DNA from: Nitrosopumilales archaeon
GTDB lineage: Archaea > Thermoproteota > Nitrososphaeria > Nitrososphaerales > Nitrososphaeraceae
NCBI GenBank assembly: GCA_044507735.1
Contig: JBIQJB010000019.1
Location: 1 to 43,857 of the forward strand
DNA length: 43,857 bases
Direction: 5' to 3'
Positions 19,154 through 40,231 of this stretch are shown piece after piece. Made by a program: the position numbers and the translations under genes. A model generated the notes under the pieces. It did not search any database, was not told the DNA's origin, and was given only the letters and a program-made list of their open reading frames with translations. The number at the start of each line of letters is the position of its first letter. Position 1 is the stretch's first letter.

Positions 19154-19525
19154 TGGTTCTTATCACCACTCTTGAGTTGTCAGGGAAAGAAGATTAACCG
19201 TACTAAGGTTGCGTTTTGATGTTTTCGTTTGATGCAAAAGGACTCAGCTACGATTACGTCTAGTATAAGATACCTTTGAAGAATCAAAAGCTAATTTTAC
19301 TGCAAGAAGCGAATATTATTTTCATCGACCGCTGGATTGAAGCAGCAGCCTTGGAAAAAGTGCGGCTCCGTTGCGTGCACGGGTTTTCAATCTTGCCGAG
19401 CAAGGGTTGGTGTTAAGCAGGTCACCAATGTGTTTCCGAATTGATTTGATCCACCGAATCAAAATGCATACCCCGTATAAGCGATTTCGACCTTCTGTAC
19501 ACCATGCGAAGGTGGACACGGTGGA

Positions 19526-20173
19526 ATGAAAACCGGAACCGAACAACGGGATTCTGATGACGACGAGTCTGTGGAAAGAATCGCCATCAACAGCAATAAC
19601 AATAACTCCCTACTACCACCCGTCGCACTATCCTTTGTTGCAAAGCCTTCTCCGCCAGCAAGCTTGAACAATCTTGAGGAGGCAGGCAGAATCCGGTTAA
19701 CCGTGCATTTTGAACAACAACATCAACAATATCAGCAAGATGAAGGGGCGGCTGAGATGCCAGTCAAGCGCGTGAGTGCAAAAATTACGAACAATACAAG
19801 GTCAAAGTCCGCCGCAATTTCCATGCCAGCGATGACGGAAACATCATCCCATGGTGCTAGCAGCAATGATGAAGAATCTGTCATGGCACACTCTTATTCT
19901 GCAGCAGAACTTGTACAAAAGGGACTGGACACATGGTATGGCGAAATCGCGATTCCCTGCAATTGGTTTGAAGGCGGCAGCAAGACCTATGAACGAACAG
20001 GCTCATTCACCCCCTACTATGACGACAATTTGTTCACAATGACCATAAGCTGGTTGGTGCCTTTTCCCAGGGACAACCGCACAGACGAAGAAGGCAAGAG
20101 ATCTGTGGTGGAGCTGCATTCAACAGACGCTTTTCACTGGGAGCAGCAACAGGAGGCGTTGCTGCCATCATGA
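19526..20173 (+). CDS. Hypothetical protein with low-complexity insertions
   Basis: 215-aa ORF with poly-N/Q tracts and an aromatic-rich C-terminal part; no recognised motif. Confidence 0.5.
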   Translation: MKTGTEQRDSDDDESVERIAINSNNNNSLLPPVALSFVAKPSPPASLNNLEEAGRIRLTVHFEQQHQQYQQDEGAAEMPVKRVSAKITNNTRSKSAAISMPAMTETSSHGASSNDEESVMAHSYSAAELVQKGLDTWYGEIAIPCNWFEGGSKTYERTGSFTPYYDDNLFTMTISWLVPFPRDNRTDEEGKRSVVELHSTDAFHWEQQQEALLPS

Positions 20174-20639
20174 TCCGCTGTCGACTGAATATTCCGTCTT
20201 CTTCCACGTTGGCCTACCAAAACCTCTGTGATAGTGAATGGCAATAATGGTGTGGCACTAATACCATGATTTGCTGAATCTTTTCTGATTTCTTGTAGCC
20301 AAACTCTGTTCTTTGCAGAAATTGATATGCATTTGATGGGAAAACAGTGCCAAAGTTATCCATATTGCCTTTAATATTGTTCGAGGCAATTGTGTTCTTG
20401 GCGGGTCCATGACCTGCCGCTGACGTCAGTCAAAAAAAGCCTGGACCCTCACTTTATTCTGTCTGAACCTGTGAGGAGGGTCTGGGCTTTCCTCACTAGA
20501 CAACAGAAAAAAGCACCGTTCACATCCATGTTTGCCATTGCATCACGCCTTGCTGGTTCGCAAGTCAACCCTAGCTACTTCCAGAGTCTGATGATGACGC
20601 AAACAACAAACGCATTCTTGGTTTCAAAATTGTTATTTA

Positions 20640-20862
20640 CCAAAATTGCGATATGGGGTTCGTGGAAGGTAGCTCCCTGGAAATGCCGATTCTTGAAGTA
20701 CTCTCGCCTATGCTCTCCGAGCCAGCCTAACCCCATATCGCTTTCAATATATCGGAGGAGCTACCCCTGTGGCCAGACTCTTGGTGTAATAGATAAGACA
20801 AAAGCACAATAATCTTCTTCAACTCGGGTTTTGATTGTTCAGAAGCGCCGCTGATTAATACG
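20640..20862 (-). ncRNA. Candidate structured ncRNA, family 1 copy 1 (pseudoknotted)
   Basis: Homologous to 37310-37530; 13-bp inverted repeat 20648-20660/20729-20741, invariant 20-mer 20673-20692, two further helices with compensatory changes; G-U pairs favour the minus strand. Ends approximate. Confidence 0.65.
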
Positions 20863-20954
20863 AGACCAATTTTTCAAAATGCTTGATCGCAATCGAAATC
20901 CCCGCATACATCAACTATCATAGAGCCACCACAGTGCGCCCAATAGCCTCTCCT

Positions 20955-21124
20955 TGCTGCTACAATGCCTTTTTGGAATCTACATGTGCGTGCATATCGG
21001 CGTTCCACAGGTGGCAGCGTCGCCAGCGATTCTGACAATCCTCTCCGGGGAATATTGCGACCACTTACCTGCAGGACATGTCTGGTGGCGTTACCGCCGC
21101 TGTCGCCGCCCCACCACTTTTTTT
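20955..21124 (+). ncRNA. Candidate structured ncRNA, family 2 copy A
   Basis: Homologous to 25564-25725 (23/25 identity at 21074-21098); long hairpin with conserved UCUAC/CGGCG internal loop; 3' hairpin followed by a T-tract. Confidence 0.55.
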
Positions 21125-21519
21125 CACAAACATCTTTGGCTTTGCAAGCGCTGCCGGCGCAGAGCAATTTCATGTCGAATCATGGCGATATCGCGTGCGT
21201 AAGCTGTATAGATTTCTGATACCAAGCTGATAGCAGTGGAAATTCTGTGTTTGCGATGTAGACGTATCAATTATTTACTTTCTCTGATAATCAGATTGCG
21301 GGTGTGTGTGAATCCCGCACAGCATGGGTCTCCGGCCTTGTTCATCCCATGCCGGCAGCCACTGCAATCGGCCCATGCTGTGCTACCAGCTACTATCTCT
21401 CGCTTGCCGGTGATTGCATTGTATACACAATGATTATTATCTGAAATATGCTCGATTGACGCGCCAAGGATGAAAGCGTGAAAGGCGACGTCCATAAAAA
21501 GGAAGGTAAGACCAGAGGT

Positions 21520-22152
21520 ATGAAGATATCTACAGACAATGACCAGGTTCGAGGCCATAGAGACAACCCGTCAGTCGATGAGCCTCAGCAATCTGCTGCA
21601 GGAGAGCCCAACAAGGCGGTCCTGGTCAGGATCCCGCAGGACCTGCTGCAGTCACTGAGAGAGGAGTCACACTACAAGGGTACAAGCGTGAACTCGGTCA
21701 TAGTCAGCATACTCAGAAAGTACTCCGGCTGGTGGAGATTCCAAGAAAGGCTCGGCTTCATGCCCCTTCACAAGAGCATGGTGGTCCAGATCATGGACAA
21801 GATTTCTGACGATGACGTGGAAGAGATTGGCCGGATTCAAAAGGACCAGACCATCAAGGACTTTATACTATTCTCCGAATCTGGCTACGACCTGGGCGCG
21901 TTCATTAACTGGTTAAGGCTCAGGTGCGAAGTGATGGGCTTTCAGCTGGTGGTCAGGCATGAGAAAGACGCCAGCATCTTCATCATGATCAACCATGGGA
22001 TAAGCTCAAAGTGGTCCCGCTATTACAAGGGCATGTTTGAAGCGGTGCTGCAGGAACTGCTCAAACCTGGCGACTATGGCGAGATGAAGTTTAGCCTGAC
22101 CAATTCTTCATTTAGCGTCACCATATCAGGCATCAAATATTCGTGGGAATAA
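21520..22152 (+). CDS. Ribbon-helix-helix putative transcriptional regulator with C-terminal effector-type domain
   Basis: VLVRIPQDLLQSLREES...SVNSVIVSILRKY is an RHH pattern; C-terminal NHGISSKWSRYY typical of a thaumarchaeal paralogue family. Confidence 0.75.
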   Translation: MKISTDNDQVRGHRDNPSVDEPQQSAAGEPNKAVLVRIPQDLLQSLREESHYKGTSVNSVIVSILRKYSGWWRFQERLGFMPLHKSMVVQIMDKISDDDVEEIGRIQKDQTIKDFILFSESGYDLGAFINWLRLRCEVMGFQLVVRHEKDASIFIMINHGISSKWSRYYKGMFEAVLQELLKPGDYGEMKFSLTNSSFSVTISGIKYSWE

Positions 22153-22203
22153 TAGTAGCAGCAAAAAATCTGCTCTGGAAAAAATGAGATGGTGATGAAA
22201 AAG

Positions 22204-27543: not shown

Positions 27544-27792
27544 TTGAGGAGTTGCAGAAATATCTGCGTGCGCACCAGGTCCAGACCTGGTGGCTGTCGA
27601 GGTTCGTACATCAATGGCTTGCGCAAGTGCTCTATCTGCGATGCATTCTTTCAAGACAGCGCAAGCAAGTGCAGCTGCTGCGGGGCAAGATTGCGGAGCA
27701 AACCAAGGGGAAGAAAGCTGAGGACAAACCTGAGAAAGAGACATCTGGAGAAGCAGAGGATCGTATATGCAGAAAGCCTGCCAGTGGAGTGA
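27544..27792 (+). CDS. Cys-rich basic zinc-ribbon protein, paralogue of 36826-37143
   Basis: CRNIC...Y..G..KCSIC...CSCCGARLRSKPR; in-frame TTG at 27544 aligns with the start of the paralogue. Confidence 0.7.
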   Translation: MRSCRNICVRTRSRPGGCRGSYINGLRKCSICDAFFQDSASKCSCCGARLRSKPRGRKLRTNLRKRHLEKQRIVYAESLPVE

Positions 27793-36825: not shown

Positions 36826-37143
36826 TTATGGTTCTTCCTTTTCTACTACTACCATCATCACCTGCTTTTGTTCCTCTGCTACAGGAACAGATGATGATGA
36901 TGCTGTTGTTGTTGCTTCTGTTGCTATTGTGCCCTTCTTATTCTGCATTTTTTCCCGCAGTTTGTTCTTGTATTTCAAATTGCGAGGCTTTGTTCTCAGC
37001 CTGTAGCCACAACACGGACACCAGAGATCATTCCAATTGATGAATATCTCGCATATCTGGCAGCGCTTCTGTCCTGTAGAATACCTGCCTGCGCCAGTTG
37101 GTTTCGGTGCTCTGTGACGAATGCAAATGCCTTTACATGTCAA
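36826..37143 (-). CDS. Thaumarchaeal Cys-rich zinc-ribbon protein
   Basis: MTCKGIC...RY..GQKRCQIC...CPCCGYRLRTKPR. Confidence 0.8.
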   Translation of the reverse strand: MTCKGICIRHRAPKPTGAGRYSTGQKRCQICEIFINWNDLWCPCCGYRLRTKPRNLKYKNKLREKMQNKKGTIATEATTTASSSSVPVAEEQKQVMMVVVEKEEP

Positions 37144-37309
37144 TCCTGGATCTTCACCCTAAAGAATTTGCACATTAACTATGGGGGATTTACCAATTAT
37201 TATATTAACTTTTATGAAATTTTTGTCTCAAATTTCATGCCATAAATCAACAACGAGCGTTCTCTGAGCAAGAACGATGATAACAATAACGTGCTTTTCC
37301 AAATGCTAG

Positions 37310-37530
37310 ATGTTAGCGATATGGGGTTGTTGAGGGCAAACTCCCTGGAAATGCCGATTCCCAAAGGAACACACTATGATATTCCCTCACATGCGACTGA
37401 GCTGACTAACCCCATATCGCTGGAACGAGGAGATGCCCTCTTTAGTCAGACTCTTCAAGAAGAAGAGTGGATTCACATTTCAATTTTAGTCAAAGCTGCT
37501 TTTGACTTTTCAAAACTGCCGCTTAGTACG
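37310..37530 (-). ncRNA. Candidate structured ncRNA, family 1 copy 2
   Basis: Same 13-bp inverted repeat (37316-37328/37408-37420), identical 20-mer (37341-37360) and covarying helices relative to 20640-20862. Ends approximate. Confidence 0.65.
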
Positions 37531-37766
37531 GCTACTACAGGACCGCACCGGTTTCTCCACTGACTCGCAAAAAACTGCTACATAGTTGTGGAATCAACAA
37601 CTACAACAGAGCTCCTCGGATGATAAGACATGCTAGTGCGATTGTTGCGATAGTTCTTCTCCATAGTTATGTTTGACTGGAGTCTTGATACTGCCTCTGC
37701 TCTGCTGTCATTTCGTCAATCCGCATTGCGTCAAGTGCGTACCTTGCCACTTGGCTGTCTAACTCG

Positions 37767-38574
37767 CTAGTGTTCTTGAAGGAACGCAAGTGTGTTTCTT
37801 AGATCCAGAATCACATTGTCGGCCTCGGGCAGATCCCTTACCAGATGGGCCAGACTGCTAGTCCAATGATCCTTTGCCTCAGCTATTCTGACTCTGTCAA
37901 AGAGGAGATCGGGCATGAATTTTATCCCCTTCAATTCACACTTTTCCACTACGAGTGTCTTGATCTCTTGTTCGTCGAACTCTTGTTCCTTCATCAGTCT
38001 CCATACGTCATAGTAATCGCGGGAATATCCCCTTTGCATGATGCTTCTTATCTTTTCAGCCAGTATTTCCTTAAGCGAATAAGATAGTATGGTGTATCTA
38101 GCAAGTCAGGATAGTCACTCTTCACGATTCTTGATTCAGGTGCAAGTGCCATCTCTCCGAAAGCGAGATGTCAAGTTTGATTCTGTTTGGATGGTTCAGC
38201 GGACCGCGGAACTGCACGCTTGATATTAGGTGGCCTTCATTTGGATGGAAAGAATAGATAGAATAAGTAATTCCGCTTTCTACAGCCAATATGCTCAAGA
38301 CGCTCTGAATTGCTTCCTTTATCTTCCTTGGGTCCTTATCATCGGCATTGTAGCCAACAATAGTAAAGTCCAGATCTTCGGAGAAGCGCCATGTGCCTGG
38401 GAAGAAGGCTTTGCGAATAGCAGTGCCGCCCTTTAACGAAAAGATTTGTCCGAGCTTGCTATCTTGATGGTAGAAGCCTTTCAGCAACCATGTTAGGGCA
38501 TAATCCTTCTCTGCAACTGCAGCTCCTATCTTTTTGTCTCTTGCAATGCTTCTAATCCGCTCATTATCAATCAT
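37767..38574 (-). pseudogene. AbiEii/AbiGii nucleotidyltransferase toxin with two frameshifts
   Basis: EKDY, LKGGTAI, RFSEDLDF in one frame; SDYPDL in a second; YSLKEILAEKIR...RDYYD in a third. Shifts near 38153 and 38100. Confidence 0.85.
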
Positions 38575-39431
38575 TGCGATTCTTGCTTCCAGCTTACAAG
38601 AGAATCCTTTGGTACATTGACCAGCAAGTTCCACTTGGTGTTGTATTTTCCTTTGCTGTCTTGACGAGGGCGAATCGTCGGATCGAGTATGGACATGCCC
38701 GGCGAAATCATACCCATCATTCTCGGATACAGTTCTAGGTATCTGATATCGAGAATATCTAGCAGAAACCCGAGCCTCTTGATTATTGTAGAGTTGCCCA
38801 TCCTTTGCGCATATTCGAGCACCTTTTCGATAGATATAGAATCTCTGGCATTCGAGATGCATTTTGCCACTTCTGCCATTCCACCGCAGTATTCCGGATG
38901 GTCAAGTGCATCTGCTATCGTCTTTTCTCTGTCAGATATGTTGACTCTGTCTGAGCCAAGCGATATGCTTGAAAAACCAAAGAACTTTTTCTTATCAAGT
39001 GTTATGAATCGATACCTTACGTCCATGATGGTTCTGCTCTTTGCCCTCTTTGTAGTGGCTATGAAAACTGTTAATGGTGTTTGCTCTGTCATGTTGTAAA
39101 AGTTCAGGGCACTCCAGTATCCTATGTAGTATGGAGATACAAGATGAGAGGCTATGATAAACTCGTGTTCTGTATATTTTGCATCAACCCCTGCACTTAG
39201 CGGGACTATGAGGTATGTGCCGCGCTTGAGATTTATCGTCCATTTCTTCTTGGCCAGCACTTTTGCAATATTCTTGGCATAGTCGTACGAGCAATCTAGC
39301 TCTGAAATTATGTCTCTCATGGTAAAGATGCTCTTTCCCTTGCTAGCGAGAGATGACAGCAGGAAGCTCTCTGTCTTCGACAGCCCTTGCCTTATATTTT
39401 GTGTGCTCTTGGAGGTTGATATGATCCCCAA
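38571..39431 (-). CDS. Type IV toxin-antitoxin AbiEi-family antitoxin / wHTH regulator
   Basis: LKRGTY, YYIGYWSAL..Y.MTEQ.P, SDREKTIAD.LDHP.YCGG, KRLGFLL; ATGA overlap with the toxin. Start uncertain (TTG 39431 chosen; ORF open to 39500). Confidence 0.88.
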   Translation of the reverse strand: MGIISTSKSTQNIRQGLSKTESFLLSSLASKGKSIFTMRDIISELDCSYDYAKNIAKVLAKKKWTINLKRGTYLIVPLSAGVDAKYTEHEFIIASHLVSPYYIGYWSALNFYNMTEQTPLTVFIATTKRAKSRTIMDVRYRFITLDKKKFFGFSSISLGSDRVNISDREKTIADALDHPEYCGGMAEVAKCISNARDSISIEKVLEYAQRMGNSTIIKRLGFLLDILDIRYLELYPRMMGMISPGMSILDPTIRPRQDSKGKYNTKWNLLVNVPKDSLVSWKQESQ

Positions 39432-40231
39432 CGTTACATAACATATAATGCCGTCAGTTAATAAAAGTATTCCGTACGCAAGGGTTGTTGCACTTGCCAT
39501 TCTTGCGCACTCCCATCACACACTCGGAGCACTTTTCAAAGATTGTTGTTGTGGAGTCAGGCCCGGGCATATCTCGTAATTCTGCTATCGACTGGATTGT
39601 GGATAAGCATCGGGAGTACACTGCATTGCTGCGCCATGCCCTGCCTTTTGCTGCAGGTCGCAGGAAAAAGGGACTGGCCTCATGTTCTTGTTGTTCTTGG
39701 CATTTGCCGCGCTTGGAAAAAAGAATTGACTCAAGACAAGAGGAGTAGCGTGCACAAATGTCGATGGTACCTTTCTTGGTTGTGCCGGGGTTCGTCTCTG
39801 CCAGGTTCACATTGTGCAGTCGTGTGCTTCTCAGGTTGGCTCATCGAAGCTTGGCCCCCACAAAAGCCAGCACTATCGGAGTTGCATCCATTCAGCTTTG
39901 CCTAGCGCAAATCGTTGCAGTCAAGTAGATAGAAGAATAACAACAATAGCCGCGCATTACCATCATTATTGACCCAAAAATCTCTTTGACAGCCACTTAT
40001 GGCAGCTGCGCTGGCAACGTTATGATTCCATGCAAGGCAGCTAACAATTTCTGGACTGTATGCATGGATGTATGCAGCTGTGATGAGTCGCGTCACCGCT
40101 GGTGGTGGTAGTAATAGCAACATGGCGAACTTTTGCAGGACAAGTTGCGAAGGGTCAGACAAATTGTTTCAGACATGCCATGTGAATGGCAGTTGTCACT
40201 CTAACTCAACATCACTCCCTGGCAACTTACC

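Follow-up and report, generated by a model that had tools for sequence, protein, structure and literature searches.

Two paralogous intergenic segments of an archaeal contig represent a family of putative pseudoknotted small RNA genes

H-type pseudoknots, in which two stems interleave in the order S1-S2-S1'-S2', occur in the telomerase RNA core, the transfer-messenger RNA (tmRNA) pseudoknots, and the SAM-II and preQ1 riboswitches. Hepatitis delta virus (HDV)-like ribozymes have the strand order P1-P2-P1'-P4-P2', and three-way junctions closed by pseudoknots are found in the flaviviral exoribonuclease-resistant RNAs and the phi29 pRNA. To our knowledge, very few structured non-coding RNAs (ncRNAs) have been described from ammonia-oxidising archaea beyond the universal ones. 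Here we describe two paralogous non-coding segments (20640-20862 and 37310-37530) of archaeal contig JBIQJB010000019.1, whose whole 43,857-nt stretch (the window) was read and both regions aligned. The best explanation, which we regard as reasonably probable, is that they belong to a family of stand-alone genes for a structured small RNA encoded on the minus strand; that they are real structured RNA genes is a claim we hold with high confidence.

The family contains 15 full copies and one truncated copy, located in seven of the 72 genomes of the genus and on one metagenome contig, and falls into five types. Type 1 comprises copy 1 of the window and four orthologues; type 2 comprises copy 2, one orthologue, and one copy keeping only the 3' half; types 3 and 4 have one member each. 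All of these have a helix c, whereas the six members of type 5 (95-110 nt) are without the 13-bp stem and keep helices a and b. Read on the minus strand, the window copies share the order a, 1-3 nt, b, linker, c, 0-1 nt, a', loop domain M, b', 1-5 nt, c' (Table 1), and the junction linkers (a-b 1-3 nt, c-a' 0-1 nt, b'-c' 1-5 nt) are of these lengths in all nine members with c. A preliminary description of the window had proposed three helices interleaved as A-B-C-A'-B'-C'. That order is present, and A and B were correctly placed in both copies (Table 1), but the 13-bp helix C, described as invariant, is accessory and missing from six of the 15 members. The crossing helices are supported, with the core refined to a and b and a loop with two conserved motifs.

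In the proposed fold the RNA would start at or just before helix a, and the conserved core would be an H-type pseudoknot in which the 5' segments a and b, 1-3 nt apart, pair with a' and b', which are separated by the 32-67-nt domain M. The conserved motifs GCGAGA(G)URCUUC and GGCAUUUCCA carried by M would lie beside the distal end of b. In types 1-4 the strand between b and a' would carry c, and because c pairs with the 3' tail c' via linkers of 0-5 nt, a, b and c would meet at one three-way junction; reasoning, as opposed to computation, suggests that c stacks on a with b alongside c. Type 5 would be an H-type pseudoknot with two stems of ~12 bp, which may stack as a quasi-continuous helix since they are only 2-3 nt apart; its 32-37-nt M would span both stems, and a 6-7-nt strand would return from the end of b along b to the start of a'. 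Formation of the a/b pseudoknot appears likely, and the chance that a, b and c form at the same time is about even.

Table 1. Coordinates of the predicted RNA genes and their features in the window
Feature	Coordinates	Strand	Remarks
Copy 1 RNA gene (type 1)	20642-20786	-	predicted transcript ~145 nt
Helix a, 5' strand (GAGuCUGGCC, bulged U)	20771-20780	-	pairs with 20719-20727
Helix a, 3' strand (a')	20719-20727	-	pairs with 20771-20780
Helix b, 5' strand	20757-20767	-	pairs with 20666-20676
Helix b, 3' strand (b')	20666-20676	-	pairs with 20757-20767
Helix c, 5' strand, 13 bp	20729-20741	-	perfect inverted repeat with 20648-20660
Helix c, 3' strand (c')	20648-20660	-	pairs with 20729-20741
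Helix d, 5' strand (CCGAU), candidate	20751-20755	-	complementary to 20686-20690
Loop domain M	20677-20718	-	GCGAGAGUACUUC, AUCGG (d', 20686-20690), invariant bulge CAUUUCCAG (20677-20685)
TATA-like box (GATTATTG)	20807-20814	-	putative
TCAA-N8-TTGA palindrome	20819-20834	.	putative transcription-factor site
Distal upstream conserved block (CGTATTAATCAGCGGCGCT on minus strand)	20844-20864	.	shared by most members
Copy 2 RNA gene (type 2)	37314-37459	-	covariance-model match 37314-37455
Copy 2 helix a, 5' strand	37444-37453	-	pairs with 37399-37407
Copy 2 helix b, 5' strand	37429-37440	-	pairs with 37332-37344, internal loop
Copy 2 helix c, 5' strand	37408-37420	-	pairs with 37316-37328
Copy 2 promoter-like block	37481-37505	.	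TATA-like 37481-37488, TCAA-N8-TTGA 37490-37505

The core resembles other H-type pseudoknots in its strand order and in having a long loop with conserved nucleotides, but its stems are 9-13 bp, its first loop is 1-3 nt and its third loop 32-67 nt, most members add a third crossing helix, and there is no match to them in sequence or by model. Types 1-4 are similar to the pseudoknot-closed three-way junctions in that 0-5-nt linkers are combined with long-range pairing that ties the arms together. They differ in that no arm is hairpin-capped and all are built from distant strands, and these are cellular chromosomal genes with a promoter-like block of their own and without sequence similarity to the described RNAs. 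We know of no described family with a three-arm junction that lacks any hairpin-capped arm. The archaeal H/ACA and C/D guide small RNAs (sRNAs) are of a similar size class and likewise have a hairpin pocket whose two strands pair with two adjacent segments, but here the paired partner is the RNA's own 5' end, and the polarity is opposite to the H/ACA guide-target arrangement. Box C (RUGAUGA) is present in none of the 15 members and CUGA in five, at scattered positions; no ACA is consistently present in the 3' tails, where it occurs within 8 nt of c' only in two type 2 copies (~3 nt after c'). Inspection by eye, with no dedicated search, recognised no K-turn, loop E or bulge-helix-bulge motif.

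A likeness to the HDV-like ribozymes is seen in the crossing long-range helices and the order a-b-a'-(hairpin)-b', which recalls P1-P2-P1'-P4-P2', and invariant unpaired nucleotides lie beside a compact pseudoknotted junction. It is nonetheless very unlikely that these are self-cleaving or otherwise catalytic RNAs with the invariant loop nucleotides as active site. The 6-7-nt strand between b and a' in the six type 5 members is too short for P3/L3 and does not accommodate P1.1, and in types 1-4 the corresponding strand is occupied by helix c. The stems of 9-13 bp exceed those of known small ribozymes, no Rfam ribozyme family is matched even at E values up to 1-10, and the hammerhead core CUGANGA is found in a single member of the 15, there away from the junction. 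The genes are also single-copy, syntenic, and unlinked to repeats or mobile elements.

The sequence elements listed in the preliminary description (repeat, 20-mer, spacer, variable part and right-hand shared blocks) are all present on re-reading and aligning the two segments. Both contain GCGATATGGGGTT (20648-20660 and 37316-37328) followed by a 12-nt spacer, the identical 20-mer CTCCCTGGAAATGCCGATTC (20673-20692 and 37341-37360), a variable part of 36 nt in copy 1 and 47 nt in copy 2, and AACCCCATATCGC (20729-20741 and 37408-37420), which forms a 13-nt inverted repeat with GCGATATGGGGTT. The 20-mer has only these two sites in the 2.33-Mb genome with up to three mismatches allowed. Homologues were collected by a DNA search of the genus, by exact-pattern scans of genome and metagenome contigs, and with two covariance models, R1 and R2, which match copy 1 at 20646-20782 (E values 1e-32 to 1e-34) and copy 2 with E values of 8e-22 to 8e-24. 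The genome-contig scan returned 63 stretches, five of them real (L029, L032, L038, L053 and L070) and the others apparently due to chance, and the metagenome scan returned 11, one of them real (L089).

Genomes carrying the family have one to three copies each and are recorded under the titles Nitrososphaera sp. or Thermoproteota archaeon. The genome studied here has a third copy outside the window (G000:C17:253830-253939, plus strand), a type 5 member lacking the 13-bp stem and carrying the TCAA-N8-TTGA and TATA-like block upstream. Orthologues of the element in three other species are 81-89% identical, compared with 77-79% for the flanking coding DNA, and both the type 1 and the type 2 loci are syntenic between species; because the element is more conserved than its flanks at syntenic loci, purifying selection and an absence of recent mobility may be argued for. 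The copy 2 orthologue in genome G081 is 80% identical. The family is narrow: none of 131 genomes from 17 sister genera gave a convincing match. Three weak matches there (E values 0.06-0.09) were rejected as lacking the defining features, as was a weak match in G016 from the search of the genus (E value 0.005), judged false on reading; the grounds for rejecting weak model matches were lack of the invariant loop, the helices or the promoter block. Of the weak matches, L111 resembles coding repeat DNA. The truncated type 2 copy, in G031 (G031:C181, around 1481-1560 of the locus), retains the loop motif, b' and c', its 5' half being replaced by unrelated sequence, which indicates a likely rearrangement breakpoint inside the gene.

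The pairing of a and b is conserved through sequence change. In copy 2 all nine pairs of helix a are Watson-Crick; at junction positions 1, 3, 4 and 5 it differs from copy 1 with pairing kept, and at positions 1 and 3 both sides differ. Covariation between these two copies had been claimed in the preliminary description, and pairing is indeed maintained through changes, but the evidence is thin from the two window copies alone and convincing only with the further homologues. In the alignment of 15 members fitted by the model, 95.5% of the helix b cells are paired and five of 11 pairs are changed on both sides (22 cells), a score reached by none of 500 column shuffles, and slid registers are only 28-54% paired. 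Between types 1 and 5 three consecutive pairs of b are exchanged (G-C to A-U, G-C to C-G, and U-A to C-G). Helix a, tabulated over six positions of 15 members in a junction-anchored, ungapped register, has 91.1% of cells paired compared with 77.9% in shuffles (0 of 1000 reach it) and 11-44% in slid controls; four of the six positions are changed on both sides, which 54 of 1000 shuffles reach. When the region 5' of stem c is compared with the interior of hairpin c, free of any segmentation, the two best duplexes together are equalled in only 0-19 of 1000 dinucleotide shuffles for every one of the nine members tested.

Little variation is seen in helix c: a single pair differs on both sides, and the G062 copy contains minus-strand G-U pairs. 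The pairs of the candidate 5-bp helix d are invariant, and the type 3 copy has neither of its strands; this helix would lengthen b beyond the 9-nt bulge CAUUUCCAG. Within M, GGCAUUUCCA is conserved in all 15 full members if single-base variants are allowed (GGCGUUUCCA, in three members of type 5, and GACAUUUCCA, in G000c), and GCGAGA(G)URCUUC is present in 13. These invariant nucleotides are the obvious candidate for a recognition surface.

Reading from the minus strand is supported by several features. In the ungapped registers there are 35 G-U cells on this strand compared with two A-C cells, which would be G-U on the plus strand, bearing out the earlier claim that mismatches become G-U pairs on the minus strand. 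The summed duplex energies of the same segments are -431.6 kcal/mol for the minus strand and -368.3 kcal/mol for the plus strand, and each of the five types has its conserved upstream block 5' of helix a as read on the minus strand. The z-scores of nested folds do not separate the strands (copy 1, -2.66 minus versus -0.83 plus; copy 2, -2.68 versus -3.06). The G-U to A-C asymmetry would be meaningless for double-stranded DNA, and it is extremely improbable that the segments act as DNA, whether as a site of recombination or inversion, as the remnant of a mobile element, or as an array of protein-binding sites. Such an element would account for the perfect 13-bp inverted repeat around a 68-79-bp segment and for the position of copy 2 next to broken AbiEii genes. 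However, type 5 is without the inverted repeat, the loci are syntenic across species at one to three copies per genome with no target-site duplications seen, and Pfam reveals no recombinase or transposase domain in the neighbouring ORFs. An insertion sequence, a miniature inverted-repeat transposable element or a transposon guide RNA (TnpB omega RNA or IS110 bridge RNA) was also considered and rejected, with few copies and syntenic type 1 and type 2 loci; the Pfam search covered ten neighbouring ORFs, among which no TnpB or IS110 domain was found either, with no search for TnpB or IS110 across the whole genome.

Open reading frames overlap both copies (20390-20812 and 37291-37563 on the plus strand, together with minus-strand mini-ORFs), and none of these frames has a Pfam match. 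A protein-coding gene or its remnant was rejected, as the reading frame is not kept across homologues. Indels of 1-2 nt, not multiples of three, lie between conserved blocks, in the G085a orthologue the spacer that follows the ATG of the repeat is shorter by 2 nt, a stop interrupts the plus-strand frame of the type 3 copy at codon 3, and the type 5 members are without the ATG found inside the repeat. The possibility raised in the preliminary description, that the segments are decayed remnants of a coding gene, is accordingly not borne out, and its proposal of a functional RNA is supported, as a structured ncRNA, by pairing, homology and the lack of a coding frame.

Rfam 15 has no match at gathering thresholds in the whole window, and at E values up to 10 only three matches over 20500-20950, with 12.8-14.5 bits compared with cut-offs of 50-54.5 and none on the core. 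Five further loci searched at E values up to 1 give only a neighbouring tRNA and a second, sub-threshold match that falls on it, and ARAGORN predicts no tRNA or tmRNA gene in the window. The element therefore has no Rfam family match at gathering or permissive settings, and its earlier separation from tRNAs, HDV ribozymes and C/D-box RNAs is upheld by Rfam, ARAGORN and motif checks. No description of the family was found in Rfam 15 or by full-text literature search. It looks undescribed so far; pseudoknotted small ncRNAs are a known general kind, to which it adds a new family with an unusual topology.

The upstream block common to all five types consists, on the minus strand, of a distal motif, the palindrome and an A/T-rich box, followed by 22-25 unconserved nt and helix a; the A/T-rich box is ~26-34 nt before helix a. 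The TCAA and TTGA half-sites have a fixed 8-nt spacing in most members, and the inner bases of the palindrome are non-complementary in type 1, so it is probably a protein site and not an RNA hairpin. The distal block has the form CTAA..GCGGCAGT and is diverged in G062 and G067. This layout is what would be expected of an archaeal promoter with an upstream regulator site, the distal block and palindrome preceding a TATA-like box ~30 nt before the RNA. The palindrome would probably bind a dimeric regulator, through which the paralogues could be co-regulated. The TCAA..TTTGA, GCCGCT and TACG blocks, listed in the preliminary description as part of the RNA, fall in this promoter-like region and not in the fold. 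Because the TATA-like box is ~30 nt upstream, the 5' end is predicted at or just before helix a (~20783-20787 in copy 1 and ~37458-37460 in copy 2). Several members have a run of four or five U after the last helix, and the U4 run at 20642-20645 suggests the 3' end of copy 1.

A search of the genome for a strict palindrome, TCAAAA-N3-6-TTTTGA, to which the family's own TCAA-N8-TTGA sites do not conform, found it once, as often as its reversed control, and no regulon was detected. Two CAAAA-N-TTTTG palindromes ~380 nt apart on contig C16 of the genome (~11810 and ~12193) are unlinked to the RNA family. A 224-aa protein (21478-22152, plus strand) is conserved on the right-hand side of type 1 loci, in all four that extend that far, the fifth, G031a, ending at a contig edge before that position. 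By eye its N-terminal part resembles a ribbon-helix-helix DNA-binding motif, though Pfam has no match. The protein is a candidate regulator for the TCAA-N8-TTGA site.

Since all three helices cross and some linkers are very short (3 nt between b and c in type 3), a, b and c may not coexist and the RNA might be a conformational switch, toggling between nested states with a ligand, protein or temperature as the driver: hairpin c with a and b free or mutually paired, and the a/b pseudoknot. In copy 1 the nested minimum-energy fold places a-b and a'-b' pairings within hairpin c (-48.7 kcal/mol), and for the type 5 members RNAalifold proposes instead that a' pairs with M through its GAUACU motif. 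Nevertheless, these pairings are not shared across types, with different folds for copy 2 and the type 5 copy, and type 5 keeps a and b without having helix c. Types 1, 4 and 5 are also without a same-strand downstream gene, so that a cis-acting switch would there have nothing to control, and we consider a switch unlikely.

No neighbouring gene is common to all types in a comparison of loci of types 1-5, and the element is for that reason not a leader of one particular gene. Two types do have a gene placed as a cis-regulatory 5' leader would require. The type 2 copies lie ~170 nt upstream of a zinc-ribbon ORF (36826-37143, minus strand) at three of three loci, including the truncated G031 copy, and ~190 nt downstream of the type 3 copy is a gene predicted from its sequence, with no family search, to encode a thermosome subunit. 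An RNA-library contig of a type 2 relative also runs ~120 nt past c' towards the zinc-ribbon ORF. But the two downstream genes are unrelated, no same-strand downstream ORF is conserved in type 1 (five loci), type 4 or type 5, and several members have the U-run after the last helix, leaving the leader highly improbable. The zinc-ribbon ORF encodes a small CxxC...CxxC protein without a Pfam match; as a gene linked to the family it was rejected, being beside type 2 only, with no copy near copy 1 by tblastn. It has a paralogue, 38% identical, at 27550-27777 (plus strand).

The RNA-library contig is 215 nt long, derives from the type 2 copy of a relative, and aligns with the window over 20665-20698. 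Three public RNA libraries have small shares of the query, and over 19500-22200 they cover only 19520-20043 and 20665-20698. The first of these intervals corresponds to a 570-nt contig from a compost RNA library, with adapters at both ends, that matches the 215-aa ORF 19526-20173 with no differences; the source organism, or a near-identical one, is present in that library.

Several points weigh against a stand-alone, trans-acting RNA with the fold proposed here. The 215-nt contig, alone among the RNA-library records in touching the family, is strandless and may reflect DNA carry-over. The helix b counts come from an alignment fitted to b, and the helix a table depends on a segmentation set by ourselves; in an unfitted MAFFT alignment of eight sequences four pairs are changed on both sides, a number reached by 73 of 500 shuffles. 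Formal covariation rests on about five lineages, so that its cells are non-independent, and helices c and d hardly vary, which makes covariation uninformative on them. The 3-nt b-c linker of type 3 would, by reasoning, allow the helices to coexist only if b and c pack side by side, and the TATA-like boxes resemble the archaeal TATA consensus only weakly. As for a partner, a genome scan with the 17-nt loop motifs at up to two mismatches reveals no long antisense target, the complementary sites being the genes' own antisense and one two-mismatch site on another contig. The loop complement is also not enriched at the start codons of long ORFs, and no conserved neighbouring protein points to a partner. 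The stand-alone RNA gene remains our preferred reading, and within it the most likely role of the pseudoknot would be as a scaffold that displays the invariant loop (CAUUUCCA with the adjoining nucleotides) to a partner, either a protein or a nucleic acid, a role in trans that we propose only tentatively.

Other features of the window touch the segments less directly. The intergenic stretch to the left of copy 1 (20257-20537) is 78% identical to the G081 locus with no ORF conserved between the species, and may be another non-coding feature. At 20903-21141, the orthologous G081 locus lacks ~200 nt and has only 35 nt between the homology blocks on either side; the missing segment includes most of a 99-aa ORF (20874-21173, minus strand), which is probably not a gene. 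Beyond copy 2, ORFs 37767-38039 and 38122-38862 (both minus strand) match positions 155-229 and 7-112 of the AbiEii nucleotidyltransferase toxin profile and look like a single toxin gene broken by a frameshift or a stop; ORF 38571-39500 (minus strand), which overlaps, may encode the toxin's partner.

The weight of these findings is limited by the narrow distribution of the family. Its architecture is unusual in that long crossing helices would meet at one junction, and the paralogues with and without the third helix constitute a natural deletion experiment; for RNA structural biology it offers a compact new pseudoknot topology to test. Quite unlikely is a new archaeal functional RNA class with a catalytic or a ligand- or protein-sensing core around the invariant GGCAUUUCCA loop and no hairpin-capped arm; if true, this would be a class of ribozyme or riboregulator specific to soil ammonia-oxidising archaea. 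The shared promoter palindrome points to a dedicated regulator, and for archaeal biology the family provides a candidate regulatory RNA in a group that is important for soil nitrogen cycling.

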